64,000 nucleotides of DNA from an uncultured Candidatus Saccharibacteria bacterium. GTDB lineage: Bacteria > Patescibacteriota > Minisyncoccia > UBA6257 > 2-01-FULL-56-20. The position numbers were made by a program, and so were the translations under genes. Below the pieces are notes generated by a model. The model was not told where the DNA came from, did not search any database, and saw only the letters and a program-made list of their open reading frames with translations. Location: contig CAYWDX010000001.1 of NCBI GenBank assembly GCA_964456235.1, positions 125,935-189,934 on the forward strand. Reading direction: 5' to 3'. How positions within the stretch are numbered: position 1 is the stretch's first letter; each line of letters opens with the position of its first letter. Positions 197 through 48,907 of the stretch are shown here, piece after piece.

Positions 197-280
197 CGAT
201 GAATGTAGATGAGCGTAATAAAGACGCCCTGTATAAAAATTATATCACAGCGACCAGGCACTTTCTGATATAATAAGGAT

Positions 281-793
281 ATGAAGCGCCGTCATTCTGA
301 TGCTGGTCGCTCGTATATCTGGGTAGCGGTCGTCATTGTCGCGGTCGGTGTCGTTATTTATTATTTCGCACCCAAATTGAGTGGCCCTTCGTCGGGACAG
401 TCCGGGAGTTCATTCAAGCCAATCATGGTACAGGGAACGATTCCGGCTTCAAGTTATGGCGCCGGTGCGGTCGGAACAAAAACGGCGACGAGCGTGACGC
501 TCCAAACGCCGGTTTCTTCTGCGACGCTCGGCACGATCGTCGGCATGGCGAAGATCAGTTCCGGCGCCGGCGTCAACTTCACGACCACGGTCATCGGCCT
601 CACGGACCCAAAAACTAAAAAATTGCTCGGCAGCACGCCGTTCGGCGCCGATGGGTCATATCAATTTTTCGTGGAGCCGGGTGAATATATCCTCTCGATG
701 GTGAGCGGCCCCTTAAAAAGCGGTTCGCTCCCCCAGCGCGTCTACGTTGGCGTTGGCGAAGTTTTGAATATTAACTTTTTCGTTCACCGCTAG
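281..793 (+). CDS. Membrane-anchored hypothetical protein with a C-terminal beta-sandwich-like region (carboxypeptidase-regulatory-like, weak)
   Basis: N-terminal TM segment IWVAVVIVAVGVVIYYF. The C-terminal GADGSYQFFVEPGEYILSM pattern is typical of CarboxypepD_reg-like folds. TGaTATAAT lies 6 nt upstream of the ATG. Confidence 0.6.
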   Translation: MKRRHSDAGRSYIWVAVVIVAVGVVIYYFAPKLSGPSSGQSGSSFKPIMVQGTIPASSYGAGAVGTKTATSVTLQTPVSSATLGTIVGMAKISSGAGVNFTTTVIGLTDPKTKKLLGSTPFGADGSYQFFVEPGEYILSMVSGPLKSGSLPQRVYVGVGEVLNINFFVHR

Positions 794-818
794 TTGGTTC
801 GCTACGCTAGCTTGCTCG

Positions 819-1439
819 CTAAAGGTGGAGCAGTTGAATTTGTCCGGAGCTCGCCGTGTTCACGTTGGTGCCGGCTGCATAATTATTTCCCAATTGCCCG
901 CCCGCTGCATTATTTCCCGAACCGCCCGACCAATCGCTCTGGCCGGCCACATCACTCACGCTGCGCGTGAGGAATAGTTGATAGGTCGTCGAACTGCCGG
1001 TCCCCGATGCGTTCGCGACCACCGTTACCTTGATCGTCGAGGGGTCGAACGTGTTGCCGCTCGCAACCGTCGTCGCGTTGCCGCTTCCGTCGCGATAGAT
1101 GGTGTCGAGATAAAAGAAGCGGGTGTAGGTCGTGCTATTCACCGTCACCGATTGCCCCGTCGAGGTTCCGACCACCACAAACACCGAACTGCTCGGCGTT
1201 AAGTAATAGAGGTTCGCCGAGGTCGTCGCGAGCGTGAGTATGGTATTCCAATTCCCTGGCGCCCACGCCTGCACGTTGCCGAGCAGCTCACTCGCCAGTG
1301 AAGATTTCGCCTGGACCTGGCCCACCTGGTTATTTTGCAAAATGGCGGGCCGGATCAGCGATGCGGCAACCGCAAGAAGCACGGTGCCGATCCCGACGGC
1401 GATGAGAACCTCGATGATCGATTGTCCCTTATGGCGCAT
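819..1439 (-). CDS. Type IV pilin-like protein (minor pilin / pseudopilin)
   Basis: N-terminus MRHKG/QSIIEVLIAVGIGTVLL is a prepilin cleavage/methylation motif with Glu at +5 and a hydrophobic helix. Directly downstream of pilC. Confidence 0.8.
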   Translation of the reverse strand: MRHKGQSIIEVLIAVGIGTVLLAVAASLIRPAILQNNQVGQVQAKSSLASELLGNVQAWAPGNWNTILTLATTSANLYYLTPSSSVFVVVGTSTGQSVTVNSTTYTRFFYLDTIYRDGSGNATTVASGNTFDPSTIKVTVVANASGTGSSTTYQLFLTRSVSDVAGQSDWSGGSGNNAAGGQLGNNYAAGTNVNTASSGQIQLLHL

Positions 1440-1444
1440 GGCAA

Positions 1445-5989: not shown

Positions 5990-8944
5990 TCATTTTTTAC
6001 AGAGCTGGTTTAATTTTTTTCGCGTGAGCGTGCCGAAGATACCGGTTCCCGCGGTCAATTGCTGCGGAGTGAGAATGTCGGCGGCGAAAATTTCCTGGAA
6101 TGCGCCCACGGCGCGCGCCCTGGCGGGGCCAAAATATTCGGTTTCGTGCCCAGGCGACCCTGGCCCATCCGCCGCTACCTGCGTAAGAGAACTTTTGTTG
6201 AGTGTTTGTTGCAATAATTGCACGCTATTCCCCGTCGCGCCTTCCTGTAAATTTTTTCTGAATGCGGCGGCGCAGTTACTGCCGAGCTGAAGCGCTATCA
6301 ATTTTTGTTTGAGTGCGATGAGTTGCGATTTGAGATCTGGTGTTGGCGTTGCCGATCCCCGCGCCGCGGTCGTCGTACTCACGCCGAGCACTTTTCCATT
6401 TTCCTGGAGCGGCGGTGATTGATTGTTCTGATTGTGCGCGGGAGGATCTTGGGCGACCGAACTGCCACCGCTCGATCCACCGCTCGATGGAGCATTCACG
6501 GGCGGCGTTGATGTCGGCGACGAGGGCGTTGATGTTGGCGACGGTGGTGCCGGCGACACATTGCCGACCGGTTGAATCACGTCATCCATCGCACCGTCGC
6601 CATCATTATCCATCTTCAAAGCCAAGTCGCTCTGCGGATTTACAAAATGGAGCTGCGCCGTGGTGCTGGCGCTCGCGAGCGAGATCAACGGATACGTGAC
6701 CGTACTGCTTACCATGGCGCCGTCATATTCTTTTATCTGCATGCGGAATATTCCTGCGTCTGATGCGCGGCCCACGATGGTATAAAATTCCCCAGCCGGC
6801 AATGCTGGCACCAAGGCGAAAAGATTACTGCCGAAAACATCGTATTCAGCTCCTGGAATCGTAGCCATAAGGATTCCCGATGTCGCCATGCTAAGCTCGC
6901 GACCTTGGGAGTCGTAAATATCAAGCGTGACCGGGCCGTTGACGCTGACCTCGAAGTTTCGAGGGCGCAGACCCATGCAATCGGGAGGGTTCATGGAAAT
7001 TCCCCGAGGCAGCGTGGTCGTCCCCGTGCCCGCAAGAATGTCTTTAATAAATTCTAGCGGGATGGCGTCAGTTGCGAGCCCCATATGATCGGTCCCCGTT
7101 TGGTCGCCAAGGATGAAATACGTATTCGAACTATTTGCCAAATTCAGAGCGCTCAACTCCGGGATGGTGCCGTCACCAATATCGCGCCTTACTTCAACGA
7201 CACCGCCGTCATACAAATCAAACCCCACGATGGTCGGGCGGTTGCAGCCGATGATGTTGTATATACTCGAAACATGTATCGGCATCGCGTCCACGGCATC
7301 ATGAAAATTGTCGGCGAGATGCGAGAGCGGCGCATTCGGCCCCATCGAATGACCGTGGTCTAATATTTCATCTTTCCCATTTCTCAAATCATGAATGTAG
7401 TCGCCGGCGATAGTCGCGTAGCGAGCGCTCGGCAGCATTTCATAAATTGCCGGCATATTTTCGACAATCATTTTCGCTTCGCGCGGATTCAAGCCGAGAC
7501 CAAGCCAATTCATGCCAAGATCGTCGCCGTAGTTTAGCATTTGGTATGCGCGGGGCGTGCCCAGTTGCGGAACGCCGAGCAGGATAGCTTTGTCGATGTC
7601 CGTATGCGACGCAAGATATTCTTCGAGAAGCAGCCCGCCCATGCTGTGCGCGATCACGTTAACTTTTCCCGTCGGGGAAATCCTCACGGCGCGCGCAATC
7701 ACCGACGCAAGCGAATCCGTCGAACTCTCGATCGAGATGCGCCAGTCATAGGGCGCGGCGAAAAGATCGCGGCCTTCTGTATAGCCGTTTTGGACAAGCA
7801 TATCAATCAAATTTTGATACAACTTTTTCTCGAACGTGACGCCGAGAAAGCTCGTCGTAACGTTGCGCAGGATGTCGGTTGGGGAAAGTTGCCGATCGGC
7901 AAATGGCGTGCCGTCGGCATCGAGGGCTAAGAAATCTAAATAGCCATCATTTGATGAAGTGATCATCTGCGATGCACTCGGCCACGCTTCCCCGCCATCG
8001 GCGCGAACAAGACGCGAACCCATGATGCCGGGAATGATGACGACCGGCTCCCGAATCGCTTCTGGCAGCGTTGCGGTTGGTATATTGAAATCGATATTGC
8101 CTGGGCTCCGAAATTCAATCCAGGGCGAAGTGAACCCGCCGGTACGATCAACCGCTCGCGCGGCCCAATGATATGCCCCTGGCGCGAGGCCGGCCACCGT
8201 TCCCGACGCGACTTCACCGATGCCGACTGAATGAGTCGTGATCGTAGTGCTCCCCGATAATGGAACTGCGATCGGTTCGACTTCGATCTGCAAGGCGGCG
8301 GTGTCGGACGCGAAAAACATCTGCATGGTTGCGCCGAATGATACGGCACTCCCCGATGCCACGCCGTTCTCCGGAATCGTGGTCGTCGTGCCGAAAAAAT
8401 ATTGCGCGAGGTTTGTGAAGCCCACCGGGGATCCGACGCCGTCAGAATCACCGAAAACTAAATACGGATAAAATGCACCATCACTCCCCCGCGTGCCATA
8501 GACTTGCGCATCAAATGAACCGGAAGAAGAAAACTGAACGCTCACGCCGGTATCGCCCGCCCCGCCGTAATTAATATTCACGTCGTCGAACGTGTAGACC
8601 GCTTTTTGCCCAAGCTTCCCGGCCGCTTCCGCCGATGTTACGCAGTGTATATAAACCTGGTTTCCTCCGCGAAAGATGTTTACGAGCACGCCGGTATTGG
8701 GCGCGACCGGACAAAACGCGCTCACCCCTCGCTGCGAGTCATTTAAAATATTCATCTCCACTTGCAGATGGCTTACATGGCCCAGCGCATCGGCATATGC
8801 TGCGCCGAGCGGGCTCATGACAACGCTTGACGTTGCATCATCAAAATACTGGGCGTACAAATTCGCTGCATCCGCGTGATGCGTCCACAATAAAAACCAG
8901 GCGCCGGCCGCCACGCTGGCGACCGCAAAAAATTTCTTTTGCAT
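5990..8944 (-). CDS. Secreted multidomain protein: LCAT/PGAP1-like alpha/beta-hydrolase (lipase/acyltransferase), S/T/P linker, C-terminal peptidoglycan-binding domain
   Basis: Signal peptide MQKKFFAVASVAAGAWFLLWTHHADA. Oxyanion-type IIPGIMGS and nucleophile elbow AHSMGG. Linker PAPPSPTSTPSSPTSTPP..SSGGSSGGSS. C-terminal LQQTLN...YFGPARARAVGAFQ resembles PG_binding_1. Confidence 0.8.
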   Translation of the reverse strand: MQKKFFAVASVAAGAWFLLWTHHADAANLYAQYFDDATSSVVMSPLGAAYADALGHVSHLQVEMNILNDSQRGVSAFCPVAPNTGVLVNIFRGGNQVYIHCVTSAEAAGKLGQKAVYTFDDVNINYGGAGDTGVSVQFSSSGSFDAQVYGTRGSDGAFYPYLVFGDSDGVGSPVGFTNLAQYFFGTTTTIPENGVASGSAVSFGATMQMFFASDTAALQIEVEPIAVPLSGSTTITTHSVGIGEVASGTVAGLAPGAYHWAARAVDRTGGFTSPWIEFRSPGNIDFNIPTATLPEAIREPVVIIPGIMGSRLVRADGGEAWPSASQMITSSNDGYLDFLALDADGTPFADRQLSPTDILRNVTTSFLGVTFEKKLYQNLIDMLVQNGYTEGRDLFAAPYDWRISIESSTDSLASVIARAVRISPTGKVNVIAHSMGGLLLEEYLASHTDIDKAILLGVPQLGTPRAYQMLNYGDDLGMNWLGLGLNPREAKMIVENMPAIYEMLPSARYATIAGDYIHDLRNGKDEILDHGHSMGPNAPLSHLADNFHDAVDAMPIHVSSIYNIIGCNRPTIVGFDLYDGGVVEVRRDIGDGTIPELSALNLANSSNTYFILGDQTGTDHMGLATDAIPLEFIKDILAGTGTTTLPRGISMNPPDCMGLRPRNFEVSVNGPVTLDIYDSQGRELSMATSGILMATIPGAEYDVFGSNLFALVPALPAGEFYTIVGRASDAGIFRMQIKEYDGAMVSSTVTYPLISLASASTTAQLHFVNPQSDLALKMDNDGDGAMDDVIQPVGNVSPAPPSPTSTPSSPTSTPPVNAPSSGGSSGGSSVAQDPPAHNQNNQSPPLQENGKVLGVSTTTAARGSATPTPDLKSQLIALKQKLIALQLGSNCAAAFRKNLQEGATGNSVQLLQQTLNKSSLTQVAADGPGSPGHETEYFGPARARAVGAFQEIFAADILTPQQLTAGTGIFGTLTRKKLNQLCKK

Positions 8945-9003
8945 GGCCGGGATTCTACCACAACCGCCATTAAAAACTGATTAAAATTTCGAGCCCCTTG
9001 GGG

Positions 9004-9449: not shown

Positions 9450-9971
9450 CTATCCTCGCGAAAATACCCTGCCGTGGGCTGTCAACGTATACCCATTCGC
9501 ATTGCTCACCAGGTCAAAAGTGTCAACCGCTATGAGAAATCCGGACGATTCAGTTTCCGCATCTTTGAGGAATGCAACGAGGTTCGCTGCGGAGCCGCTT
9601 GCCGTGATGGTGAAGCCGTCGCTCGCTGGCACATTGGCAGTCGTCGGAGCATTCACGCCCGTGAATGCGGCGGTGGCGGCAACACTATGGGACAGTCCGA
9701 CCCCAGTGACCCAGTCCGGGAAGCCGATGAGGCTGTCGTGCGATGGCAATAATTTTTGCATCGCCGCAAGATAGGGCATCGTGGTCGAAGCATCATTTTT
9801 TAAAACGGCGAGCTGGCTCACGATTGAATTTTGCTGGTCAATAAACGATTTATCCGAAATAATTTTGTCGCTTTGCGCCGCCAGGTCGCTTGAAAAGGAA
9901 TAAGCGCCGAACGACACGCCGGCGATTGCAATGACAATGACACACAGACCCACGATCCACTCCCGCTTCAT
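9450..9971 (-). CDS. Membrane-anchored hypothetical protein (PilO-like topology, weak)
   Basis: N-terminal TM (WIVGLCVIVIAIAGVSFGA), then a helical segment and a small globular domain. TgtTACAAT lies 6 nt before the ATG. No diagnostic motif. Confidence 0.55.
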   Translation of the reverse strand: MKREWIVGLCVIVIAIAGVSFGAYSFSSDLAAQSDKIISDKSFIDQQNSIVSQLAVLKNDASTTMPYLAAMQKLLPSHDSLIGFPDWVTGVGLSHSVAATAAFTGVNAPTTANVPASDGFTITASGSAANLVAFLKDAETESSGFLIAVDTFDLVSNANGYTLTAHGRVFSRG

Positions 9972-10049
9972 ATGTTCATTGTAACATTTAGATTAAAATT
10001 TGATTAAGCACTGCTTGTGTTTTTGCGCGCGCTCGGCTAGGGATGAATT

Positions 10050-11087
10050 ATGCACGAATCTTTTTTCTACAACGCGCTCGCCAGTGCGGTAGACGGCGAT
10101 CGGAGAACATTAATCGGCATTAAGAAAAAATGTGGGTCATGGGAACGGGCCTATGCCCTGCACCGAACCATACGGCGCCCCGACGATGCATTCACCGTGC
10201 CGGACGCAGAAAAAGCATGGGCGGAGCTTGAGCGTTTCGATGTTCGCCTGGTGATGGCGGGCGAGCCAGATTACCCGACCCTGCTCAAAGAAATCATCGA
10301 TCCCCCATTCGGCCTCTATATATTAGGGAGGCTCCCAAAGGAGCCGTACTTTGCCGCAGTGGGCACCCGCCGGGCAACCCCGGAAGGAACGGCCACCATG
10401 CGCAGGTTTACTGCGACGCTCGCGCGCGCCGGATTTGCGATTGTGAGTGGCCTTGCCCTTGGCATGGATGCGGCGGCTCACGAGGGCTGCCTGGAGGGAG
10501 GCGGCACAACCATTGCCGTTTTGGCTGGCGGCTTGCACGATGTTTACCCCGGCGAAAACAAAAAGTTGGCAGAAAAAATTCTCGCGCAGGGCGGCGCATT
10601 GGTGTCGGAATATCCGATCGGATCACCGCCATATCCGAGCCGCTTCATCGAGCGCAATCGGATCATCGCCGGGCTTTCTCGCGGCGCGCTGATCATGGAA
10701 ACTCCTGAAAAGTCAGGTGCGCTCGCCACGGCGCGCCTCGCGATGGAAGAAAACCGCGACGTGTTTGTGGTACCTGGCGCGATTGCGAATAAAAACTATG
10801 AAGGGTCGCATGCGCTGATCCGTCAAGGGGCGGAGCTCGTGACGTCGCCCGAGCAAATTTTAGAATCGTATGGGATTATGCCGCGGGAAAATATAGATCG
10901 CGTAATCATCGATGCATCATCCGAAGAAAAGCAGGTTTTAAAAGCCCTGCGCGATACTCGCGCCCCACTCGACGTTGACAAAATTTTGGCGGCGACTAAA
11001 CTGGAACCCCAAACCGTGAACCGGACGCTCGCGTTCCTTCTTTCTAAAGATTTGATTAAAGAGCGCAACGGCAGGTATACAATATAA
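10050..11087 (+). CDS. dprA: DNA-processing protein DprA (Smf)
   Basis: Rossmann-like DprA core (GTRRATPEG...SGLALGMDAAAHEG...RNRIIAGLS). Conserved dprA-topA adjacency. Confidence 0.9.
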   Translation: MHESFFYNALASAVDGDRRTLIGIKKKCGSWERAYALHRTIRRPDDAFTVPDAEKAWAELERFDVRLVMAGEPDYPTLLKEIIDPPFGLYILGRLPKEPYFAAVGTRRATPEGTATMRRFTATLARAGFAIVSGLALGMDAAAHEGCLEGGGTTIAVLAGGLHDVYPGENKKLAEKILAQGGALVSEYPIGSPPYPSRFIERNRIIAGLSRGALIMETPEKSGALATARLAMEENRDVFVVPGAIANKNYEGSHALIRQGAELVTSPEQILESYGIMPRENIDRVIIDASSEEKQVLKALRDTRAPLDVDKILAATKLEPQTVNRTLAFLLSKDLIKERNGRYTI

Positions 11088-11093
11088 AACACT

Positions 11094-13331
11094 ATGGAAC
11101 TGGTAATCGTTGAGTCCCCCACCAAAGCGAAAACCATCGGGAAATTCATCGGAAAAGAGTTTACGGTGGAATCTTCCTACGGTCACGTGCGCGACCTGCC
11201 GAAAAGCAAGGTTGGCATTGATGTTGAACACGATTTTGAGCCGCAATACGTAATTCCGAACAAGGCGAAACCCGTGGTAGCAAACTTGAAAAAGCTGGCC
11301 GCCGATGCGGATGGCGTGATTCTCGCGACCGATGAAGACCGCGAAGGCGAAGCGATCGCGTGGCACCTAGTCACCGCGCTCGGGCTCGAGAAGCACCGCG
11401 AAAAAATCCAGCGCATCGCTTTCCACGAAATTACCGAGTCGGCGATCAAGAAGGCGTTGCAGAACCCGCGCGAGCTTGACCTAAACCTGGTTGACGCGCA
11501 GCAGGCGCGGCGCGTGCTCGATCGCCTGGTGGGCTATGGCTTGTCGCCATTTTTGTGGCGCAAGGTCCGCTACGGACTCTCGGCCGGGCGCGTACAGTCG
11601 GTCGCGGTGCGCCTCGTCGTCGAGCGCGAGCGGCAGATCCAAAAATTTAAGCAGGAAGAATATTGGATGATCGAAGCAAATTTTGCACAAGCCGGAAAAA
11701 CGGCCACGTTCCCCGCCACGCTCATTTCAATCGGAGGGAAATCGCTTGGCAAAATGGAGATTTCGAGCGGGCGCAAGGCAAAAGAAATAATAGAGGGGCT
11801 GAAGGGCGCAAATTACCACGTCGCGAATATTGCCGTCAAAGAAGTGCGGCGGAACCCGGCCGCTCCGTTCACCACCTCCACCTTGCAGCAGGAAGCCGCG
11901 AGGAAGCTGGGCTATTCTGCAAAACAAACCATGGTGGTCGCGCAGAAATTGTACGAGCGCGGGTTCATCACCTATATGAGAACCGACAGCGTCCATCTCG
12001 CGGAGACGGCGCTCGCAAGCGCGCGCGACGTGATCGGCGCAGAATTTGGAAAAGAGTATGCGCTCCCCGAACCGCGGCGCTATGCAACGAAGAGCAAGGG
12101 CGCGCAGGAAGCGCACGAGGCGATCCGTCCAACCGATTTGCGCGCGACGTCCGGCCACGCCCTCGGCATCAAAGAACGCAACGATCTTCGCCTCTATGAT
12201 TTGATTTGGAAGCGGACGATCGCGTCGCAAATGAAAGAAGCTCTTCTCGAACAGACGGCGGTGGACATCGAGGCGGAGACGGCGAAAAAAGAAATTTTCC
12301 GCGCGAACGGGCAGGTGGTGAAATTTGACGGATTCATCCGCGCATATACCGAAGGCCGCGACGAAGAAGACAAGGCGGGCGGCGAATTGGAAGGCGAATT
12401 GCCTAAATTGGCGGAGGGCGCGAAGCTTGCTGCAAAAGAGGTCAAGCCGATCCAGCACTTCACGGAGCCTCCCCCGCGCTACACCGATGCGACGCTCGTA
12501 AAGGCACTCGAAACCGAGGGTATCGGGCGGCCGTCAACGTATGCACCGACGCTTTCGACCATCCAGGATCGCGGCTACGTGGAAAAAGTTGATAAAAAAT
12601 ACCATCCAACCGACATTGGTTTTGTGGTCAACGATTTGCTCGTCGAAAATTTCCCCGAGATTGTCGACCTTAAATTTACTTCCGAAGTTGAGAAGGAACT
12701 CGACGATGTGGCCGAAGGAAAAATGAAATGGACTGACCTCTGCCGCTCGTTCTACACGCCGTTCAAGAAAGAACTTGATGAAAAGGAGGCGTCGGTCGAA
12801 AAGCAGGTTGAAATTTCGACGACGCCGTGCCCGCATTGCGAAAAACCGATGGTGATCAAATTCGGACGCATGGGCAAATTTCTCGCCTGCCCCGATCCGG
12901 CGGTCAAGGTGACGCTCCCGATGCCGGAAGAAGCCGCCAAAATCCGCGAGCTCGAAGAAAAAACGCGCGACGAGCGCTGCCCGATTTGCGGCAAGCCCAT
13001 GAAAGTGCGGCGCGGGCGCTTCGGTTTCTTTTTGGGATGCACCGATTATCCGAACTGCAAAGGCGTCGCAAAAATTTGGGACAAAACCGGATTCAAATGT
13101 CCGGCCTGCGGCGACAATCCGCTCCGCAACGCGAACCCTGGCGACATTGTCTTGAAAAAATCGCGTGGGCGCGGGAAACCGTTCTACGCCTGCACGCGCT
13201 ACCCCGATTGCACCTTTGTGATGAATAAAAAACCAGAAAGTGACGAAGAACTTGCCGAGGCATATAAAAAGTGGAAAGAAAATCCGCCGAAGCCCAAGAT
13301 TGCTAAAAAGAAAAAGATGGAGGAAGCATAG
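11094..13331 (+). CDS. topA: DNA topoisomerase I
   Basis: TOPRIM start LVIVESPTKAKTI, active-site region GFITYMRTDS, three C-terminal Cys4 zinc ribbons (CPHC..C, CPIC..C, CPAC..C). Confidence 0.97.
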   Translation: MELVIVESPTKAKTIGKFIGKEFTVESSYGHVRDLPKSKVGIDVEHDFEPQYVIPNKAKPVVANLKKLAADADGVILATDEDREGEAIAWHLVTALGLEKHREKIQRIAFHEITESAIKKALQNPRELDLNLVDAQQARRVLDRLVGYGLSPFLWRKVRYGLSAGRVQSVAVRLVVERERQIQKFKQEEYWMIEANFAQAGKTATFPATLISIGGKSLGKMEISSGRKAKEIIEGLKGANYHVANIAVKEVRRNPAAPFTTSTLQQEAARKLGYSAKQTMVVAQKLYERGFITYMRTDSVHLAETALASARDVIGAEFGKEYALPEPRRYATKSKGAQEAHEAIRPTDLRATSGHALGIKERNDLRLYDLIWKRTIASQMKEALLEQTAVDIEAETAKKEIFRANGQVVKFDGFIRAYTEGRDEEDKAGGELEGELPKLAEGAKLAAKEVKPIQHFTEPPPRYTDATLVKALETEGIGRPSTYAPTLSTIQDRGYVEKVDKKYHPTDIGFVVNDLLVENFPEIVDLKFTSEVEKELDDVAEGKMKWTDLCRSFYTPFKKELDEKEASVEKQVEISTTPCPHCEKPMVIKFGRMGKFLACPDPAVKVTLPMPEEAAKIRELEEKTRDERCPICGKPMKVRRGRFGFFLGCTDYPNCKGVAKIWDKTGFKCPACGDNPLRNANPGDIVLKKSRGRGKPFYACTRYPDCTFVMNKKPESDEELAEAYKKWKENPPKPKIAKKKKMEEA

Positions 13332-15943: not shown

Positions 15944-16762
15944 CTAAATATTAAAATTCCCGAAATTCTCGCTCGCGACGACCTCGCGGGGCGCTGTCAA
16001 TTGTTCCTCCTGCGCCAACACTTCACGCGCGAGCGCCGCATAGGCGCGAGCGCCCGGCGAGTCCGGCCGGTAGAGCATGATCGGCTTCGAAAAGCTCGGG
16101 GCTTCGGCCAGCGCGACGGCGCGGGGAATCTCCACGGAAAAAACGTGGTGCGGAAAATGCTCGCGGATGTTTTTCGCCACCTCCCTGCCCAGCCGCTCGC
16201 GGGCGTCAAGCATCGTGATGAGCGCCCCCGTCACGCGGATCGGGTGGTTCAAGTTTGCGCGGATCAGTCCAATCGTTTCCAAAAGCTGGCCCAGCCCTTC
16301 CAAGCTGTAATATTCTGTCTGAACCGGAATCAAAACCTCGTCGGCGGCCATGAGGCCGTTCACCGTAAGCAAACTTAAGCTGGGCGGAAGGTCAATCAGA
16401 ATGTAATCGTACTCGTGGCGTAGGCGGTTGATGAATTTCCTCAAAAAATATTCCCGATCAGGAGCATCGACAAGTTCGACGAGCGCGCCCGCAAGGTGCG
16501 GGGCAGCCGGTGCGAGTTGAAAGTTGTATATAATAGTGGGCCTCACAATTTCGCTATGCGAAGCCGCGCCCAAAATGCCATGATAGACGCTCACCGGGCT
16601 CTTGATGTCGTGCCCGAGCGCGGAACTTGCGTTTGCTTGCGGATCAAAATCCACGAGGAGTACCCGGCGCCCGGCGGCGGCGAGGTAGCTGCCCAAATTT
16701 ACTGAAGTCGTCGTCTTCCCGACGCCTCCTTTTTGGTTGCAAATCGCGATCACCCGCGCCAT
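15944..16762 (-). CDS. parA: Chromosome partitioning ATPase ParA/Soj
   Basis: Deviant Walker A NQKGGVGKTTT, followed by DFDPQANAS. Confidence 0.95.
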   Translation of the reverse strand: MARVIAICNQKGGVGKTTTSVNLGSYLAAAGRRVLLVDFDPQANASSALGHDIKSPVSVYHGILGAASHSEIVRPTIIYNFQLAPAAPHLAGALVELVDAPDREYFLRKFINRLRHEYDYILIDLPPSLSLLTVNGLMAADEVLIPVQTEYYSLEGLGQLLETIGLIRANLNHPIRVTGALITMLDARERLGREVAKNIREHFPHHVFSVEIPRAVALAEAPSFSKPIMLYRPDSPGARAYAALAREVLAQEEQLTAPREVVASENFGNFNI

Positions 16763-16835
16763 ATGCCTTGATTTTACCTTGATAAATCACTATTATCAAT
16801 TCGCAATGGCGCGTTCGTTGGTTCGCGCCGCGTGC

Positions 16836-20870: not shown

Positions 20871-20952
20871 AACCCGTGAAATATATCAAGAAATCTTGTA
20901 CTTATCAACCTATTTTGCTATTGTTCTTTTGTTTGATGGTGAGGTGTTTTAT

Positions 20953-22163: not shown

Positions 22164-22164
22164 T

Positions 22165-23256: not shown

Positions 23257-23263
23257 AAACTTT

Positions 23264-35392: not shown

Positions 35393-35512
35393 CGTAACGT
35401 TAATGATTTTTTAATAAGGTTTATTTGCGACGTTTTCTATTCTATCATAGGTGGGATAGGTTTTCACCCCGGATATAGATTTTCACCCTAAGCAACGCCC
35501 TATATTTCAAAC

Positions 35513-37867: not shown

Positions 37868-38413
37868 CTAGAATTTCACCGAAACCGCCTGTTTCTCCGC
37901 GTCCGAAAGATTGCCGAAAAATTCCATCGCCGTGAATCCCATCATGCGCGCAAATAAATTCGTTGGGAAAATTTGGATCTTCGTGTTCAGATCGCGCACC
38001 ATGCCATTGTAGAAGCGGCGGGCGGCTTGGATTTTGTCTTCGGTGTCGGTCAATTCGTTCTGTAAATTCAAAAAGTTTTCGTTCGCCTTGAGCTGCGGAT
38101 AATTTTCCGCAACCGCAAAGAGTGATTTCAACGCGCCGCTCAAAGCATCTTCCGCGCCGGCCTTCGCCGCGCCCGTCGCCTGCATCGCCCGCGATCGCGC
38201 CTGCGTCACTTTTTCAAAAACGCCCGACTCGTGCGCCATGTACCCCTTCACCGATTCAACGAGGTTCGGAATGAGGTCGTAGCGGCGCTTCAACTGCACG
38301 TCGATGTCGGACCACGCCTCCTGCGCCCGGTTGCGCGTGCGAACGAGGCCGTTATATGCGGCGATGAGCCATACGACGATGATGACGACTGCTGCGACTA
38401 TCCACGTGATCAT
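37868..38413 (-). CDS. lemA: LemA family protein
   Basis: N-terminal TM and LemA core (YNGLV..RN....W.DIDVQLKRR.DLIPNLV...YPQLKA...F). Confidence 0.92.
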   Translation of the reverse strand: MITWIVAAVVIIVVWLIAAYNGLVRTRNRAQEAWSDIDVQLKRRYDLIPNLVESVKGYMAHESGVFEKVTQARSRAMQATGAAKAGAEDALSGALKSLFAVAENYPQLKANENFLNLQNELTDTEDKIQAARRFYNGMVRDLNTKIQIFPTNLFARMMGFTAMEFFGNLSDAEKQAVSVKF

Positions 38414-38435
38414 GTTTTTATTATACGCCTATGAG

Positions 38436-40061: not shown

Positions 40062-40103
40062 ATGGTTTAATAATTTTTTAATTAAAAATTTATTAAAGGC
40101 CCT

Positions 40104-40394: not shown

Positions 40395-40421
40395 CACCAA
40401 AAATTAAAGATTTATTAAGAT

Positions 40422-40448
40422 TTAGCACTCACGACCAATGAGTGCCAA
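40422..40448. promoter_or_regulatory. CIRCE operator (HrcA binding site) upstream of groES-groEL
   Basis: TTAGCACTC-N9-GAGTGCCAA versus the consensus TTAGCACTC-N9-GAGTGCTAA (1 mismatch). Lies 28 nt upstream of the groES ATG. Confidence 0.85.
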
Positions 40449-40512
40449 CCAGAATTGTAGCGGAGAGCGCCGCCGTGTCAAGCCGCGACTGCCATAGGAA
40501 ACCCGCTTGCGG

Positions 40513-41706: not shown

Positions 41707-41765
41707 GGTTTTAATAAAGTTTTAATGAAAAATTTGTTAAAAAATATCGCACAAAGACTTTTCCA

Positions 41766-41996: not shown

Positions 41997-43469
41997 CTAT
42001 CGTACGAAGAGATAATCAGGATTGGTCACCTTTCCCGAAGCGAACTTGCCCAAATAAGTGCCGCTTGCGTCAAATATCTGGACGTTGTTGCTGGTATTAT
42101 CCGAAACATAGATCGTTCCATTTGCATCAACCGTCACGCCAGAGGTTCCCCTAAACTGTCCGGTACTCGTGCCATACGACCCGAATTTCATAAGGAAATT
42201 TCCACTCGAATCAAATTTCTGAACGCGATCCTGGTTACCGCTACCGCCGTCTGCGACATAAATATTGTTACCTGAATCGACGGCGAGGCCACGGATGTTA
42301 AGGAACTGTCCATCGCTCGAACCATATGAGCCGAACTGCGCGAGGTAGTTACCGCCAGAGTCAAACTTTTCAACCCGCAAATGTGAAATGTTCCCGCTGT
42401 CAACCGCATATACATTGCCACTTGAATCAACGCCGATGCCGGAAACACCGTTGAATTGGCCGTCGCCCGATCCTGAAGTGCCGAACTGAAGCACATAGTT
42501 TCCATTCGAATCGAATTTCTCTACCCGATGGTTCCCTCCATCGCCCGCATAGACATATCCATCGAGGCTAGTACCAATACCCAACTGGGACCCCCCTGCC
42601 GCGCTAAATTGGCCGTTCCCACTTCCTGACGACCCAGACTGGAGCAGATAGTTCCCATTTGAATCAAATTTCTGGATGCGGTGATTCCCTCCGTCTTGCA
42701 CCCAGATATTGCCGGTAGAATCCACCGTCACGCCCCACGCAAAGCTCAATTGGCCGTTCCCACTTCCTGAAGAACCGACGGTGGCGAGATAATTCCCGTT
42801 GTAATCAAATTTTTGGACGCGGCTAGCGCTGAAATCTGCGACCCACACGCACGGACCGCCGTTTGCGCATCCATAATCTTCCTTAATGAGCGTGAGTGAA
42901 GTGCCTTTCGCGTAGAGGAAAGGGATGGGACCGCCGCCGCCCGTTTCTTGTCCAGAGTATTTCACCGACTGTACATTTGCCGTAATTTCATAATTCGTCC
43001 CATCGGTCGCATAGGCGTAGTAAGAACCGGTCGAGGTCTGGTTTTTCGGGTCAACCGGGAGAAGTCCGATCGGTGAGCCGCCGGTCACTTTGGTGAGGTC
43101 AACTGGAATCCATCCCGTACCATCAACGTTGCGATAATTTTGCGAAGAAACACACCAGTAGGTTTGCCCAGCGGGAAGGGTAACCAAGCCGAGCGATGAA
43201 CAGGTGCTGGTCTGTGCACCGGAGAGCGTAGGATCGGGCACTGAAACGTAAATAGTGTTCGCGGCTCCCAGCGACGTGATGTTTTTGGCGAGCGGGAGGA
43301 CTGAATCCAGTTGGCTGATGTCAGCAATGCGCGTGCTGTCGTTCGCCTGGAGCGAAAGCTCGGACGGGTTGAGGAAATAAATGACGGTGAGCGCGCCAGC
43401 CGCGATGACCGCGATCACGATCAAAATTTCTGGCAACGTGAAACCGCGCCGGCGAATAATATTCTTCAT
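41997..43469 (-). CDS. Type IV pilin-like protein fused to a six-bladed NHL-repeat beta-propeller
   Basis: Prepilin motif MKNIIRRRG/FTLPEILIVIAVIA and a pilin-like head. Then six repeats ending (V/I)(Q/E)KFDxxGN(Y/F)L with GSxGSGxGQF spacers (NHL repeats). Confidence 0.85.
   Translation of the reverse strand: MKNIIRRRGFTLPEILIVIAVIAAGALTVIYFLNPSELSLQANDSTRIADISQLDSVLPLAKNITSLGAANTIYVSVPDPTLSGAQTSTCSSLGLVTLPAGQTYWCVSSQNYRNVDGTGWIPVDLTKVTGGSPIGLLPVDPKNQTSTGSYYAYATDGTNYEITANVQSVKYSGQETGGGGPIPFLYAKGTSLTLIKEDYGCANGGPCVWVADFSASRVQKFDYNGNYLATVGSSGSGNGQLSFAWGVTVDSTGNIWVQDGGNHRIQKFDSNGNYLLQSGSSGSGNGQFSAAGGSQLGIGTSLDGYVYAGDGGNHRVEKFDSNGNYVLQFGTSGSGDGQFNGVSGIGVDSSGNVYAVDSGNISHLRVEKFDSGGNYLAQFGSYGSSDGQFLNIRGLAVDSGNNIYVADGGSGNQDRVQKFDSSGNFLMKFGSYGTSTGQFRGTSGVTVDANGTIYVSDNTSNNVQIFDASGTYLGKFASGKVTNPDYLFVR
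42000..42857 (-). repeat. Six tandem, diverged ~135-150 nt coding repeats (NHL blades)
   Basis: The peptide periodicity VQKFDYNGNYL / IQKFDSNGNYL / VEKFDSNGNYV / VEKFDSGGNYL / VQKFDSSGNFL / VQIFDASGTYL is mirrored at DNA level (for example the recurring ccattcgaatcgaatttct / cccatttgaatcaaatttct strings). Confidence 0.75.
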
Positions 43470-43527
43470 GAATAAATTATACCATACGATGCCGCGCAGG
43501 CGCGGCTACGACTTGAATGTAACGTTG

Positions 43528-44298: not shown

Positions 44299-44341
44299 GA
44301 AACCAGCATAGCACACCGGCGCTGTTCTATAATGAAAGGCA

Positions 44342-44932
44342 ATGCCGATCGCAACTTCCCTTGCCCATTGGCTCATAACGTATCGTTACCCGATCGCCTA
44401 CCCTCTCGCGATCGCGGAGGGGCCGGTCCTTATGATGATCGCGGGCTTCCTCGTGCGCACCGGCTTTCTCGATTTTTGGCCGATCTATTTTATTTTGATG
44501 GCGGGCGATCTCACCGGCGACATCGTGTGGTACAAAATCGGGCAGCATGGGGCGCGTCGATTCATCGACCGGTTTGGAAAATTTTTCAGCGTTTCCGAAG
44601 CCCACGTACTCCGCGCGGAAAAATTTTTCCAAGAGCATCAAACAAAAATTCTTTTTGTCTCAAAAATTACGATGGGCCTGGGATTTGCGCTCGCGACATT
44701 GATGGCCGCCGGCGCCGCGCGCGTTCCCTTCAAAAAATATATGATCGTGAACGCGCTCGGCCAGTTCATTTGGACGGGCATTCTCATGGCGATCGGCTTT
44801 TTCCTCGGCAATCTCTACACGCTCGTCGATAAAAGCCTGCGTTGGGGCTTCGTCACGGCCATCATCATCATGTTTGCGCTCATGATGATGGGATTTGCGA
44901 AGTACGTGCGGAAACGGGTGTCGGAGATGTAA
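44342..44932 (+). CDS. DedA-family (VTT/SNARE-associated domain) membrane protein
   Basis: 196 aa, multi-TM, with the DedA pattern AEGPVLMMIAGFL...GDLTGDIVWY.IG..G. Confidence 0.8.
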   Translation: MPIATSLAHWLITYRYPIAYPLAIAEGPVLMMIAGFLVRTGFLDFWPIYFILMAGDLTGDIVWYKIGQHGARRFIDRFGKFFSVSEAHVLRAEKFFQEHQTKILFVSKITMGLGFALATLMAAGAARVPFKKYMIVNALGQFIWTGILMAIGFFLGNLYTLVDKSLRWGFVTAIIIMFALMMMGFAKYVRKRVSEM

Positions 44933-44941
44933 AATAGAGGC

Positions 44942-46537
44942 ATGACGTTGTCTATCGTGATCCCTACGCTGAACGAAGCGTCGGGCATCGAGCGCCTCCT
45001 CGCGCAAATAAAAAATAAGCTTACCGAGATCGATTATGAGTTGATCGTCACCGACGACGGCTCGACCGACGGCACGGTCGGCATCGCGAAGCGCTACGCG
45101 AAAGTGATTTCTGAACCGAACCCGAATCGCACGATCGGCACGAACCGCAATAAGGGGGCTCGCCACGCGAAGGGCGAGTTTTTGGTTTTTATTGACGCCG
45201 ACATGTTCGTCCCCGAGCCGAATCATTTTTTCAAAGTGCTCCTTGATGAATTTCGCCGCGATCCGCAGCTCCTCGCTCAAACCGTAAATATTAAAGTGTA
45301 TCCCGACGAGGCGACGCGCGCGGACGACCTCTTCCTCGGCATCAGCAACCTCACGATGCGGTTCATGAACAATGCTCTCCGCATCGGCGCCTCGTCGGGC
45401 GAATTTCAAATCGTGCGGCGTTCGGCATTTGAACAAGTCGGCGGCTTCCGCGAACATCTCGTGGTCGCTGAAGATCAAGACCTCTTCCGGCGCCTCGCGA
45501 AAATCGGGCATACGCGCTTTGAGCATGGGCTCGAGGCGTGGAATGACGGGCGGCGCCCGCACACGGTTGGCTGGCTGCGGCTTTTCGCCCAATGGATTCG
45601 CAACTCAATCTCGTTGAGTTTCTGGGGCCGTTCCTACGACAAGACTTGGCATGAAGTGCGCTATTGGAAAATGAGTTTTGTGATCCCCGCCTACAATGAA
45701 GAGCATTACCTCGCCGATTGCCTGAAGGCGATCATGCGGCAAAAAGAAAAAACTTCCTACGAGATCGAGGTGATCGTGGTGAATAATGCTTCGACCGATC
45801 GCACCAGAGAAGTAGCGAAAGGATTTGCCGGCGTGAAAGTCGTTGACGAACCAAAAAAAGGGATCGTGTATGCGCGGCGCGCCGGTTTTCTCGCAGCGAC
45901 GGGCGATCTTATCGCGAATATCGATTCCGATTCGCGCCTCACGCCTGGTTGGATCAATAAAGTGGTGCAGGCGTTCGCGCGGGATGAAAAATTAGTTGCG
46001 ATTTCGGGCCCGTTCATCTATTACGACGCGCCGCGTTCGGTACGCATGGTTACACGCATGTTTTATGGCATCGGCTACCTCTTCTATTTCATCAACCGTT
46101 TCATACTACACACCGGATCCATGCTCCAGGGCGGAAATTTTGTCGTCAAAAAAACGGCGATCGACGCCATCGGCGGCTATGACACGTCAATCAGTTTTTA
46201 TGGAGAGGACACCGACCTCGCGCGACGCTTGAATAAAATCGGCCGCGTGCGATTTACCTTTAACCTGCCAATGTACTCTTCGAGCCGACGTCTCGCGAAG
46301 GAGGGCGCCTTCACGATCGGCCTCCGCTACGCCATGAATTATTTTTGGACGACTTTTTTCGGAAGGCCGTTCACGCACGCCTACATTGATATCCGCCCGG
46401 GCGAATCAAAACGCGGCGCCTCACTTTCCTTTACGCCGAACGAGGGGTGGAAGGAATGGGTGATCGGCGTAACCGCCCTCGTCCTTTTCGTCGCGATCAT
46501 TATTGGTCTTGCATACGCAATCTATTATTTCGCCTAG
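44942..46537 (+). CDS. Tandem double GT2-family glycosyltransferase with a C-terminal TM anchor
   Basis: Two GT-A modules: LSIVIPTLNE...TDDGSTDGT...DAD and MSFVIPAYNE...VNNASTDRT...DSD. TM helix at the C-terminus. Confidence 0.85.
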   Translation: MTLSIVIPTLNEASGIERLLAQIKNKLTEIDYELIVTDDGSTDGTVGIAKRYAKVISEPNPNRTIGTNRNKGARHAKGEFLVFIDADMFVPEPNHFFKVLLDEFRRDPQLLAQTVNIKVYPDEATRADDLFLGISNLTMRFMNNALRIGASSGEFQIVRRSAFEQVGGFREHLVVAEDQDLFRRLAKIGHTRFEHGLEAWNDGRRPHTVGWLRLFAQWIRNSISLSFWGRSYDKTWHEVRYWKMSFVIPAYNEEHYLADCLKAIMRQKEKTSYEIEVIVVNNASTDRTREVAKGFAGVKVVDEPKKGIVYARRAGFLAATGDLIANIDSDSRLTPGWINKVVQAFARDEKLVAISGPFIYYDAPRSVRMVTRMFYGIGYLFYFINRFILHTGSMLQGGNFVVKKTAIDAIGGYDTSISFYGEDTDLARRLNKIGRVRFTFNLPMYSSSRRLAKEGAFTIGLRYAMNYFWTTFFGRPFTHAYIDIRPGESKRGASLSFTPNEGWKEWVIGVTALVLFVAIIIGLAYAIYYFA

Positions 46538-46557
46538 TATTGTGATACAAGAAGATC

Positions 46558-47946
46558 ATGTCTGCCCGCAGTAAGGCGATCGTTTTCCTTCTTTTTCTCG
46601 GGGATGTCGTCGCGCTGTATGCGTGCCTTTTCCTTACGCTCTATGTGCGTTACGGCGGCGCATTTTACGATGCGTTCCTTGATGCGCACGTGCTGCCATT
46701 CTCGATCGTTTTTATACCGTGGCTGCTCATATTTTATATCGCAGGCCTCTATGACCTCCGCCGCCTCCGCAATAATCTCGATTTTTTTAAAACGTTAGCG
46801 CTCTCGCTCGGCACAAACGCGATCGTTGCCGTGCTCGTATTCTATCTCGTACCCGCGTTCGGCATCGCGCCCAAAACCAATCTTTTTATTTTCATTTTGA
46901 TTTTTGCCGTTATCGAATTGTTCTGGCGGCGCTTATGGAACCGGATGACGGAGTCGGCGGAGGCGCCGAATCGGGTGTTGCTCGTGGGGAATGGGAAAAC
47001 GACGGAAGAAATTCTTGAAACGCTCGCCGGCAATCCACAGTTCGGCTACACGATCGCCGCGCGCATTTCGGAAGATAAAGCCGATGAAAATCCCTCGGCT
47101 CTCGCGCGCATCGTGCGTGAGGCGAGCGCGAACCTCGTTGTTGTGCCGCGCGAGTTAAAACGGAAGGATACGCTCGCCCCGGCGCTCTATCAACTTTTTG
47201 GCGCCGGCACGATCATTCTCGACCTCGATACATTTTACGAAATTGTGATGCGCAAAGTGCCGCTGGGCGACGTGCGCGAAGCTTGGTTTTTGGAAAACAT
47301 CGAAGGCTCGGCGCGCTTTTACGATCCTTTCAAGCGCGCGGTGGAATTTTTATTGGCGCTCGTGACTGGCATCGTGCTCTTGCCGATCGAGATTTTGATC
47401 GCGCTCCTCGTGGCGGCCACCTCGCGCGGGCCGATCTTCATTCGGCAGGCGCGCGTCGGCGCGCTCGGCCGCAATTTCACGCTCATCAAATTCCGCAGCA
47501 TGGTGGCGCTCGCGCCGGACGGCCAGGCCGAAGCGAATGGCGCCCAGTGGGCCGCGAAAAACGACCGCCGCATAACGCCCGTGGGGCGGCTTCTCCGCGC
47601 GAGCCACCTTGACGAGCTCCCGCAGCTCTGGAACATCGTCCGCGGGCATACTTCATTTGTAGGCCCGCGCCCGGAACGCCCAGAATTCGTTGAGAAGTTA
47701 AAGCGCGAGATCCCCTTCTACGAGGTCCGGCTCTTGGTGAAGCCGGGCGTGACCGGGTGGGCGCAGATCAATTATCCAGCCGACGAGACGCTCGACGACG
47801 TGCGCCAAAAACTCCAGTATGATATTTACTACTTAAAAAACCGCTCGCCGATTCTTGACCTCGCGATCATTTTGAAAACGCTCAAATCGTTTTTCATTAA
47901 TCCGCAGCGGGAGAAAAAACTGGTGCAGCCGGCGAACCAATCCTAG
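46558..47946 (+). CDS. Polyprenyl-phosphate hexose-1-phosphate transferase (WbaP/EpsB-type priming sugar transferase)
   Basis: Four to five N-terminal TM helices and the C-terminal bacterial sugar transferase domain (PIFIRQ.RVG..G..F...KFRSM, DELPQLWNI..G..S.VGPRP, KPGVTGWAQI). Confidence 0.9.
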   Translation: MSARSKAIVFLLFLGDVVALYACLFLTLYVRYGGAFYDAFLDAHVLPFSIVFIPWLLIFYIAGLYDLRRLRNNLDFFKTLALSLGTNAIVAVLVFYLVPAFGIAPKTNLFIFILIFAVIELFWRRLWNRMTESAEAPNRVLLVGNGKTTEEILETLAGNPQFGYTIAARISEDKADENPSALARIVREASANLVVVPRELKRKDTLAPALYQLFGAGTIILDLDTFYEIVMRKVPLGDVREAWFLENIEGSARFYDPFKRAVEFLLALVTGIVLLPIEILIALLVAATSRGPIFIRQARVGALGRNFTLIKFRSMVALAPDGQAEANGAQWAAKNDRRITPVGRLLRASHLDELPQLWNIVRGHTSFVGPRPERPEFVEKLKREIPFYEVRLLVKPGVTGWAQINYPADETLDDVRQKLQYDIYYLKNRSPILDLAIILKTLKSFFINPQREKKLVQPANQS

Positions 47947-47965
47947 GGTCGCTATAATAAAAGGA

Positions 47966-48907
47966 ATGAAAATTATCGTGACGGGCGGAGCGGGATTCAT
48001 CGGTTCGCATGTGGTTGACGCGTATGTGAAAGCCGGGCACCGCGTGGCGGTGATCGATAACTTACTGACCGGCTTCCGCAAGAATTTGAATCCGCGCGCA
48101 ACGTTTTACAAAGCGGACATCACCGACCGCCATGCGATGAGCCGCATTTTCAAAAAAGAGCGGCCGGAAATCGTGAACCACCACGCGGCGATCGCCGAGG
48201 TCGTGAAGTCCCTGCGCGACCCGATCCCCACGCTCACGACGAATGTGCTCGGCACTACGAACGTGCTCTTGGCGTTCGGCGAATACGGGCGCGGGCACGG
48301 CAACCATGGGAACCCAGGGCGCAGTAAATTTATTTTTTCTTCGACCGGCGGCGCCATGTATGGCGACCCGAAGCGCTTGCCTGCAGATGAACGCGAAAAA
48401 ACGATCACACTTTCCCCGTATGGCCTTTCAAAACAGCTCGGCGAAGAAACGATAAAATTTTATGCCCGCCATTACGGGTTCAATTATTTCATTTTCCGTT
48501 ATGCGAACGTGTTCGGCCCGCGCCAGAATCCGAAAGGCGAGGCCGGCGTAATCGCCATATTTGGCGGGCTCATCAAGGCGGGTAAGCGGCCGATCATTTT
48601 TGGCGACGGCACGAAGGCGCGCGATTATGTCTATGTTGATGACGTGGCGCATGCGAACCTCCTCGCGCTCCGGCGCGGGAATGGCGAAACGGTGAATATC
48701 GGGCGCGGGAAATTGACGAGTGATCGAGAAATTTTTGACGCGGTTGCCGCGGAACTGGAATTCCGTGAGAAGCCGATCCATGCGCCGTATCGCACCGGCG
48801 AGCTCTATAAGATCAGCTTGAATGCGCAGAAGGCGCGGCGCGTGCTCGGATGGAAACCGAAGATGCCATTCAAGCTCGGCGTGCGGAAGGCGCTGAAAAA
48901 TTTGTAA
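47966..48907 (+). CDS. NAD-dependent nucleotide-sugar epimerase/dehydratase (GalE-like SDR)
   Basis: VTGGAGFIGSH Rossmann motif and YGLSK catalytic YxxxK. Confidence 0.88.
   Translation: MKIIVTGGAGFIGSHVVDAYVKAGHRVAVIDNLLTGFRKNLNPRATFYKADITDRHAMSRIFKKERPEIVNHHAAIAEVVKSLRDPIPTLTTNVLGTTNVLLAFGEYGRGHGNHGNPGRSKFIFSSTGGAMYGDPKRLPADEREKTITLSPYGLSKQLGEETIKFYARHYGFNYFIFRYANVFGPRQNPKGEAGVIAIFGGLIKAGKRPIIFGDGTKARDYVYVDDVAHANLLALRRGNGETVNIGRGKLTSDREIFDAVAAELEFREKPIHAPYRTGELYKISLNAQKARRVLGWKPKMPFKLGVRKALKNL

Follow-up and report, generated by a model that had tools for sequence, protein, structure and literature searches.

How do the genes of a small bacterial genome begin translation when a Shine-Dalgarno (SD) sequence is rarely seen before their start codons, and a promoter-like hexamer is seen there time and again? 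This question was raised by a 64-kb stretch of contig CAYWDX010000001.1 (positions 125,935 to 189,934; the whole stretch is referred to as the window), in which an initial reading of the letters alone (the original prediction) had listed twelve TAnnnT hexamers lying 6–9 nucleotides (nt) before an ATG. We found that such a box occurs at gene starts far beyond chance. What the motif is, where it lies, how its frequency compares with controls, how it depends on gene context and that relatives conserve it were all observed directly. Based on these observations, we consider it likely that approximately 35–40% of the genes are built for leaderless expression, through a sigma-70-type −10 box that abuts the ATG.

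Genes were called mechanically as codon-usage-scored, non-overlapping open reading frames (ORFs), and each start was taken as the first ATG, GTG or TTG past the upstream stop, a rule that is therefore unable to favour any upstream motif. The gap was defined as the number of nt between the last base of the hexamer and the start codon, with a test range of 5–10. TAnnnT was present in this range at 23 of the 55 called genes with a complete 5′ end, compared with 9.5% of the spurious ORFs obtained by the same rule (26/273; Fisher p = 4.8e-8), 3.6% of in-frame internal ATGs (13/360) and 143 of all 2042 ATGs. When at most one mismatch to TATAAT was tolerated, the counts were 19 of 55 starts and 5 of 273 spurious-ORF starts (1.8%). 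The gap histogram had its maxima at 6 nt, with 9 genes, and at 8 nt, with 6; each other upstream 6-nt bin held 5–9 genes. Without any prior, expectation-maximization motif discovery in the 40 nt upstream of all 55 starts returned TATAAT(aaa), with a log-likelihood of 93, whereas none of ten shuffles exceeded 65; the gaps of the hexamers so found clustered at 6–9 nt. Motif discovery and a positional histogram were the checks that the original prediction had proposed, and on the window they gave TATAAT with a gap peak at 6, a peak that recurred in the relatives. As controls, the same script was applied to loci from a contig scan with translation initiation factor IF-2 (matches at ≤40% identity, universal GTPase motif), a panel that was reused for taxonomic comparison; it reached up to 22–33% in leaderless-rich Actinobacteria (positive control) and 0% in the SD-using Pseudomonas, Thalassotalea and Herbaspirillum. 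One of the 23 boxed starts is a miscall, that of nusG (27063–27662), whose true start is probably the ATG about 10 nt past the secE stop.

The composition and the context of the box both point to a promoter. With the flanks of the 23 window sites aligned on the hexamer, G stood at −14 in 14 and T at −15 in 11, which is the TGn of the extended −10 element, and in the pooled set TGn preceded 19 of 47 boxes, compared with 5.2% of all TAnnnT in the same DNA. The consensus was TGnTATAAT with T1, A2 and T6 invariant; the sites thus have the make-up of extended −10 elements, with TG one base upstream of TAnnnT and a dispensable −35. No −35 consensus was found in the aligned box set except at infB and parA, where TTGATA lies exactly 17 nt upstream of the box. 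In the pooled set, the start codon was ATG at 44 of 47 boxed starts, and a pyrimidine occupied −1 in 18 of the 21 sites with a gap of 6. Moreover, the strict box was found at only 1 of 33 genes that overlapped or lay ≤5 nt from an upstream gene on the same strand, against 58 of 166 others (p = 1e-4), and it was common (13/37) where a same-strand gene ended 6–30 nt before the start, a position in which the box and the end of that upstream gene overlap. Since operon-internal genes that are tightly coupled lack the box, we take it for an extended −10 promoter of the sigma-70 type rather than for a ribosome-binding site. The modal gap of 6 nt equals the canonical distance from −10 to +1, which would place the A of the ATG at +1. 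Thus two proposals of the original prediction, that the hexamers are −10 elements and that messages start at or near the ATG, agree with the consensus, the −35 hexamers of infB and parA, the absence at coupled genes and the conservation at orthologues, the second of them as a prediction from spacing. The contrast case is groES on the minus strand (40422–40481), where the promoter TTGACA-16-TACAAT (40481–40454) is followed by the controlling inverted repeat of chaperone expression (CIRCE; HrcA) operator, TTGGCACTC-N9-GAGTGCTAA (40448–40422). The near-perfect consensus at this leadered gene indicates that the RNA polymerase of the organism uses the canonical sigma-70 consensus, and the groES operon is predicted to be clearly leadered and heat-shock-regulated amid a leaderless-rich genome.

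All twelve hexamer/ATG pairs listed originally exist, and eleven have exact coordinates; for the remaining one, positions 47954–47959 read ATAATA, and the TATAAT lies at 47953–47958 with a gap of 7. Read from the sequence, the gaps of 6–9 nt hold for the listed sites, and the TGn said to be frequent is in the correct extended −10 register at 8 of the 12, while at 44930 TG abuts the hexamer and forms no true TGn. On the plus strand, these sites comprise TGaTATAAT with gap 6 before ATG 281 (266–283; a 170-aa ORF, 281–793, for which the public gene call uses the same start), TGtTAAAAT with gap 7 (30444–30462) before an M3 peptidase gene (30460–32325), TATATT with gap 6 (35501–35515) before the gene of a 428-aa protein (35513–36799), TATAAT with gap 8 (44328–44344) before a VTT-domain protein gene (44342–44932), TAAAAT with gap 6 (44930–44944), which overlaps the TAA stop of the upstream gene, before a GT2 glycosyltransferase gene (44942–46537), and TATAAT with gap 7 (47953–47968) before an epimerase gene (47966–48907). 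Those on the minus strand are TGgTAGAAT with gap 7 (8942–8960) for a 984-aa LCAT/alpha-beta-hydrolase protein (5990–8944), TGtTACAAT with gap 6 (9969–9986) for a 173-aa ORF (9450–9971), TTGATA-17-TGaTATATT with gap 9 (20868–20908) for the short-form infB (19254–20870), TGaTATAAT with gap 8 (33666–33685) for a 178-aa ORF (33132–33668), TATAAT with gap 6 (38411–38425) for lemA (37868–38413), 22 nt past groEL on the same strand, and TGgTATAAT with gap 6 (43467–43484) for a pilin-like NHL-repeat protein (41997–43469). At least seven good sites lie beyond the earlier list, at starts 2650(−), 16762(−), 51197(−), 58092(−), 11094(+), 60770(−) and 18096(−). Among them are TGgTATACT with gap 8 (2648–2667, minus) before a T2SS-F/PilC-like gene (1445–2650), 25 nt past the upstream same-strand gene; the complete promoter TTGATA-17-TAAAAT with gap 8 (16760–16799, minus) of parA (15944–16762); TATAAT with gap 6 (51195–51209, minus) before a second GT2 gene (50364–51197); TATAAT with gap 9 (58090–58107, minus) before a 279-aa ORF (57253–58092); and, as a short-leader variant, TACAAT with gap 10 (11078–11096, plus) before topA (11094–13331).

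The start codons themselves were well placed. All 10 tested proteins were present in a public collection with identical first and last residues, and Pfam domains or N-terminal motifs began at residues 2–9 in the epimerase, the two GT2 enzymes, the pilin-like protein, ParA and TopA. The Pfam Epimerase domain began at residue 3 (47966–48907) and the Pfam domain of the GT2 enzyme 44942–46537 at residue 4, and the N-terminal methylation motif at residues 6–29 fixed the start of the pilin-like protein (41997–43469). The N-termini of homologues agreed with the predicted starts of IF-2, ParA and the ORF 33132–33668. The latter ORF and 9450–9971 had been called doubtful, with the suggestion that their boxes help to validate them. 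For 33132–33668, 60 homologues were found at 44–56% identity, with E-values down to 1e-49 and N-termini aligned to the predicted start; most had no name or were called 'hypothetical protein', and they came from Paceibacterota. For 9450–9971, there were 473 homologous cluster representatives of about 176 aa, with the alignment running from residue 2. Judged by this conservation, both ORFs are real genes, as the original prediction had supposed. A promoter-at-ATG signal can thus validate short or odd ORFs, as in these two cases.

The use of SD sequences was then compared at real and control starts. The energy of the duplex with the canonical anti-SD was −1.96 kcal/mol at real starts, weaker than at internal ATGs (−2.72), and SD 5-mers were not enriched (6 of 148 pooled starts vs 26 of 672 spurious starts). 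When any in-frame start within the first 240 nt was allowed, SD reached only 19% vs 12%. The rarity that the original prediction had described is therefore borne out: the 64-kb window holds only three clear cases, the same three quoted in it, each 6–10 nt before an ORF-opening ATG at 54110(+), 17291(−) and 18738(−). They are TAAGGAGG, 9 nt, ATG (54093–54112) at a NUDIX-like gene in the polysaccharide cluster (54110–54859), AAGGAG-10-ATG at a 100-aa ORF (17291–16989), and AGGAGG-6-ATG at a 68-aa ORF (18738–c.18532) between tRNA-Cys and tRNA-Leu. The ribosome may have kept an anti-SD that is rarely exploited, or these three genes may be recent horizontal imports. About 60% of the genes are not of the box-at-ATG type. 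The upstream regions of genes without a proximal box were A/U-rich and G-poor; no SD-like purine motif was found there, only A/T-rich k-mers. The 3′ end of 16S rRNA was sought in the window and 20 related loci, and then in the window and 104 fetched loci, and none was found. The absent SD enrichment fits the reported anti-SD loss in about half of the Parcubacteria.

Considering that the original prediction had suggested a genome-wide initiation style, the DNA of relatives was investigated. The window IF-2 was 58–71% identical to proteins labelled Paceibacterota or Minisyncoccia at source, and its top species-representative genomes were Taylorbacteria and Parcubacteria; based on these identities and best matches, the window was assigned to the Parcubacteria/Paceibacteria. 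The contigs carrying relatives measured 0.7–0.9 Mb; the accessions of these relatives are ERZ25039512, ERZ25039540, ERZ25039454, ERZ25039472 and GCA_037025185.1. By sequence relationship, the window is thus placed in a small genome of the Paceibacterota/Minisyncoccia (Parcubacteria; Candidate Phyla Radiation, CPR; Patescibacteria). The related DNA consisted of the surroundings of IF-2 orthologues on long contigs, plus 17 metagenome contigs (L084–L100) retrieved by the parA promoter/start string TTGATAATAGT-N12-TAAAATCAAGG-N3-4-ATG, which came from peat and soil samples. In L081, L082 and these 17 contigs, with the parA starts that had served for retrieval excluded, the box was found at 25 of 81 starts, 15 of them with a gap of 6, vs 26 of 405 spurious starts (p = 9e-9); in L101–L104, it was found at 27 of 62 vs 20 of 321 (p = 2e-12), again with a modal gap of 6. 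The recurrence of the pattern in about 200 kb of related Paceibacteria DNA indicates a lineage-wide style and not a local oddity, in line with the original suggestion. In the distant low-GC CPR loci L005, L008 and L043, the box frequency equalled their high A/T background, so the trait is not extendable to all CPR from these data.

Individual promoters were also conserved. The parA promoter–ATG arrangement was common to the window, L081, L082, L101–L104 and the 17 metagenome contigs (about 24 genomes); the similarity began about 3–4 nt upstream of the −35, the flanks diverged and the third codon positions varied. At infB, TGnTA(T/C)ATT-9-ATG was kept in the window, L081 and L082, and L083 had TGGCATAAT-6-ATG. 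The topA box TACAAT was conserved in L082, but lay 17 nt from the ATG there vs 10 nt in the window. Side observations were made at these genes as well. In L081 (10001–10057), the public infB call (P0009, 526 aa) starts at an upstream ATG, which adds an odd hydrophobic N-terminus; because of the conserved TGCTACATT-9-ATG promoter and the alignment of homologues, translation probably begins at the second ATG instead, 18 codons further on. In L096 (1654–1693, minus strand), the otherwise parA-specific promoter string is fused, with unchanged spacing, to another ORF (MATAWNKGITKYQPK...). The window IF-2 (19254–20870, minus strand) is a short form of 538 aa, with relatives of 476–551 aa; its G domain begins at residue 16, and it is without the long N-terminal region found in most bacterial IF-2.

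Based on these results, the following mechanism is proposed. A sigma-70-type −10 element with the consensus TGnTATAAT, usually of the extended type with little or no −35, would lie with its last T 6–9 nt (mostly 6) before the ATG; RNA polymerase would start at the A of the ATG or 1–3 nt upstream; and the ribosome would load directly on the 5′-terminal AUG without SD pairing. The start site in this scheme is deduced from the −10-to-ATG distance only, and the mode of ribosome loading is likewise a prediction. Since this mode needs a 5′-terminal start codon, a gene would require its own promoter even when packed 6–30 nt behind another gene, and in such packed genes the promoter would overlap the 3′ end of the upstream gene. 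The other genes would be translationally coupled (overlap or gap ≤5 nt) or have A/U-rich, G-poor leaders, with SD sequences in very few. Sites with gaps of 8–10 nt may give 2–4-nt leaders and thus not strictly leaderless mRNAs.

Several observations weigh against this proposal. A two-hexamer promoter scan did not exceed shuffles (16 vs 13.4), and most boxes had no recognisable −35; the unenriched scan is compatible with promoters that have no −35, without lending them support. Gaps of 8–10 nt occur at about 40% of the sites, which would yield leaders of 2–4 nt if polymerase starts 7 nt past the box. Upstream DNA is A/T-rich in general, the bins at 0–5 and 12–17 nt holding 5–9 of the 55 genes, and chance thus accounts for a few of the looser TAnnnT matches. 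The three strong, well-spaced SD sequences suggest that the ribosome may still have an anti-SD. L083 showed no enrichment (1/21); it was treated as low-quality sequence and not as a counter-example because its rpoB/rpoC genes were fragmented. Lastly, infB is leadered in L101–L104, with its box 31–35 nt upstream, so the arrangement is not fixed per gene and individual genes appear to switch mode during evolution. As an observation apart, the leadered infB of L101 and L103 (about 9945–10000) has a leader of about 30 nt in which a short palindrome (ggtatcgatggatac or ggaattcatgaatttc), perhaps a regulatory hairpin, and a C/U-rich stretch ahead of the start codon were noticed.

The same data bear on three other explanations. 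In one of them, the boxes would be genuine promoters that mostly serve as secondary or internal ones or give 2–10-nt leaders, the bulk of translation would proceed independently of SD from longer polycistronic or leadered mRNAs, and the word 'leaderless' would be an overstatement. The share of sites with gaps of 8–10 nt and the topA gap of 10 nt in the window and 17 nt in L082 speak for this explanation; so does the position of many boxes 6–30 nt behind a same-strand gene, which makes read-through transcripts likely given that terminator-like signals are not enriched over shuffles (30 vs 29.5 expected). We nevertheless regard it as unlikely, since the commonest gap was exactly 6 nt in three independent sequence sets, and both the prevalence of ATG and the −1 pyrimidine in the gap-6 class agree with transcription from the A of the start codon. 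The TA-rich element could otherwise act on the RNA, as a non-SD ribosome-binding or enhancer site in leadered mRNAs without any promoter, comparable to the A-rich motif of Bacteroidetes (GeneMarkS-2 group B). Such a role would suit the disuse of SD, the A/U-rich, G-poor upstream regions of the other genes and the separate AT-rich 16-mer directly before several start codons (see below). In contrast, the consensus is specifically TGnTATAAT with invariant positions and TG at the extended −10 position, the spacing peaks sharply at the −10-to-+1 distance, and the −35 accompanies the box at infB and parA; besides, coupled internal genes also need a ribosome-binding site and are those that have no box. 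These points leave the RNA-level explanation improbable.

It is still less credible, and hardly to be entertained, that the pattern is a chance or mechanical product of A/T-rich intergenic DNA or of the TAA/TAG stops that bound ORFs. Intergenic DNA is indeed A/T-richer than coding DNA, and TATAAT at gap 8 includes an in-frame TAA, but the spurious ORFs delimited by the same rule carried the box at the low rates given above, neighbouring upstream bins of the same genes were not enriched, and the boxes were conserved at orthologous genes. The place of the motif and the gene content led us to reject an archaeal reading, in which a TATA box would lie at −26. Leaderless expression from the −10 box therefore remains our preferred explanation of the boxed starts.

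A second AT-rich element was noticed in the same DNA. The 16-mer TTAATAAATTTTTAAT consists of two TTAAT units 11 bp apart and is quasi-palindromic. With ≤3 mismatches, it has 25 matches in the window vs 0.94 expected; it is enriched in close relatives (10 vs 0.1) and not in other CPR or non-CPR loci. Matches include 40067–40096, 40403–40418, 41711–41740, 27040–27055, 32375–32390 and 35400–35415, and further ones lie at 8969–8984, 9992–10007, 28232–28247, 60908–60923 and elsewhere. Written as ATTAAAAAnTTATTAA, it ends 1–7 nt before the starts of groEL, rpsR (S18), glutaredoxin, ApbE and glyoxalase; in the opposite orientation, it precedes −10 boxes by 2–16 nt. Possible roles are those of a regulator site, an UP-like element or an AU-rich stand-in for a ribosome-binding site. 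A broader and rather doubtful hypothesis is that this Paceibacteria clade has nearly abandoned SD/anti-SD initiation, with about 40% of genes leaderless from an extended −10 at the ATG, and with leadered and internal cistrons (including the highly expressed groES, groEL, rpsR and glutaredoxin) loading ribosomes through a lineage-specific AU-rich 16-nt element, 5′-AUUAAAAAnUUAUUAA-3′, that ends 1–7 nt before the AUG. If it were true, the near-abandoned SD and the 16-nt element would explain initiation in Parcubacteria without a 16S anti-SD (often without bS21).

The gene content of the window is typical for a reduced bacterial genome. Its GC content is about 54%; it has seven dispersed tRNA genes, and no rRNA genes were found in the 64 kb. 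The encoded proteins include those of type IV pili (PilB, PilC and pilins), DNA and stress proteins (DprA, TopA, RelA/SpoT, ParA/ParB and GyrB), translation and transcription proteins (the short IF-2, RbfA and SecE-NusG-S18), chaperone and redox proteins (GroES/GroEL, thioredoxin reductase and glutaredoxin), and a polysaccharide gene cluster. In the window and in L081, rpsR and not rplK-rplA comes next after the secE-nusG cluster, a matter of local order only that says nothing on the absence of rplK-rplA from the genome. Directly after tRNA-Ser (20953–21042) comes an island of 41% GC (20953–25400), with an EcoRI-like adenine methylase (21054–22163), a GmrSD/HNH endonuclease (22165–23256) and the ORFs 23264–24388 and 24375–24689; it resembles a defence or mobile element that has integrated there. 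The gene-free interval of 420 nt between gyrB and secE (27838–28258, minus strand) contains a TTGACA-16-TATGCT promoter (about 28224–28197), a hairpin followed by a T-run (about 28135–28109) and a weak tmRNA/tRNA-like match (27986–28061) of 20 bits, below the gathering score of 47; one or two unannotated small RNAs may be encoded there.

What these starts would mean depends on how they compare with known systems. Tsurumaki et al. (2022; RNA 28:1041, PMC9297842) reported the anti-SD motif for only 48% of the 16S genes of Parcubacteria, together with frequent loss of bS21; they studied rRNA and ribosomal proteins and not gene starts, left the consequences for initiation open and put forward no other route by which it might proceed (PMC9297842). 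Leaderless starts are a concrete answer on offer to the question, left open by such CPR ribosome surveys, of how anti-SD-lacking Parcubacteria initiate translation. Start callers that reward SD misplace starts in such genomes, which matters for annotation. In the literature, we located no description linking leaderless mRNAs with Patescibacteria, CPR, Parcubacteria or Saccharibacteria, while a CPR genome may already stand as group C in the GeneMarkS-2 species tables. In the anti-SD-less Parcubacteria, the 16S 3′ end is without CCTCCT, often together with uL1 loss (Tsurumaki et al. 2022, PMC9297842). The window genome belongs to the same broad lineage, and the SD-independent initiation implied there is matched by unenriched SD here; however, three window genes carry strong SDs, and the likeness rests on gene starts and not on 16S. 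The Bacteroidetes and the Fibrobacteres-Chlorobi-Bacteroidetes group (GeneMarkS-2 group B) share the rarity of SD and the A/T-rich DNA before starts, and the approximately 60% of window genes without a box are somewhat similar to theirs. In group B, first and internal genes alike are preceded by one motif, which must therefore lie in the mRNA and cannot be a promoter, whereas the box of the window conforms to the sigma-70 −10 consensus and is not seen at internal coupled genes. Where archaea use leaderless transcription (group D: Haloferax, Sulfolobus), mRNAs likewise start at the AUG, as predicted here, and SD is rare, but the TATA box lies about 26 nt upstream, compared with about −10 here, and the window genes are bacterial (IF-2, sigma-70-type promoters, CIRCE).

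The closest known system is GeneMarkS-2 group C, where a Pribnow box lies 6–8 nt before the start of first genes and 25–50% of transcripts are predicted to be leaderless (PMC6028130). Actinobacteria (90% of genomes) and Deinococcus-Thermus (97%) dominate this group, whose members include Mycobacterium, Streptomyces, Corynebacterium and Deinococcus-Thermus (PMC6028130). As in group C, TAnnnT lies 6–8 nt before unit-leading genes, the −35 is weak or absent and the box is lacking at operon-internal genes. Unlike group C, whose remaining genes use SD, the window genome shows no SD enrichment; its box is nearer to the full TATAAT, often with TGn; and in contrast to the high-GC Actinobacteria and Deinococcus, it is a CPR/Parcubacteria genome of 0.7–0.9 Mb and about 52% GC. 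We therefore regard the window as a case of a known architecture, that of group C, in a lineage for which no description of it was located, with a possible link to anti-SD loss. The leaderless-rich organisation of Actinobacteria and Deinococcus-Thermus would thereby gain a further lineage, one that is ultra-small, depends on hosts and has reduced ribosomes, and this extension bears on whether leaderless initiation is ancestral or has evolved repeatedly.

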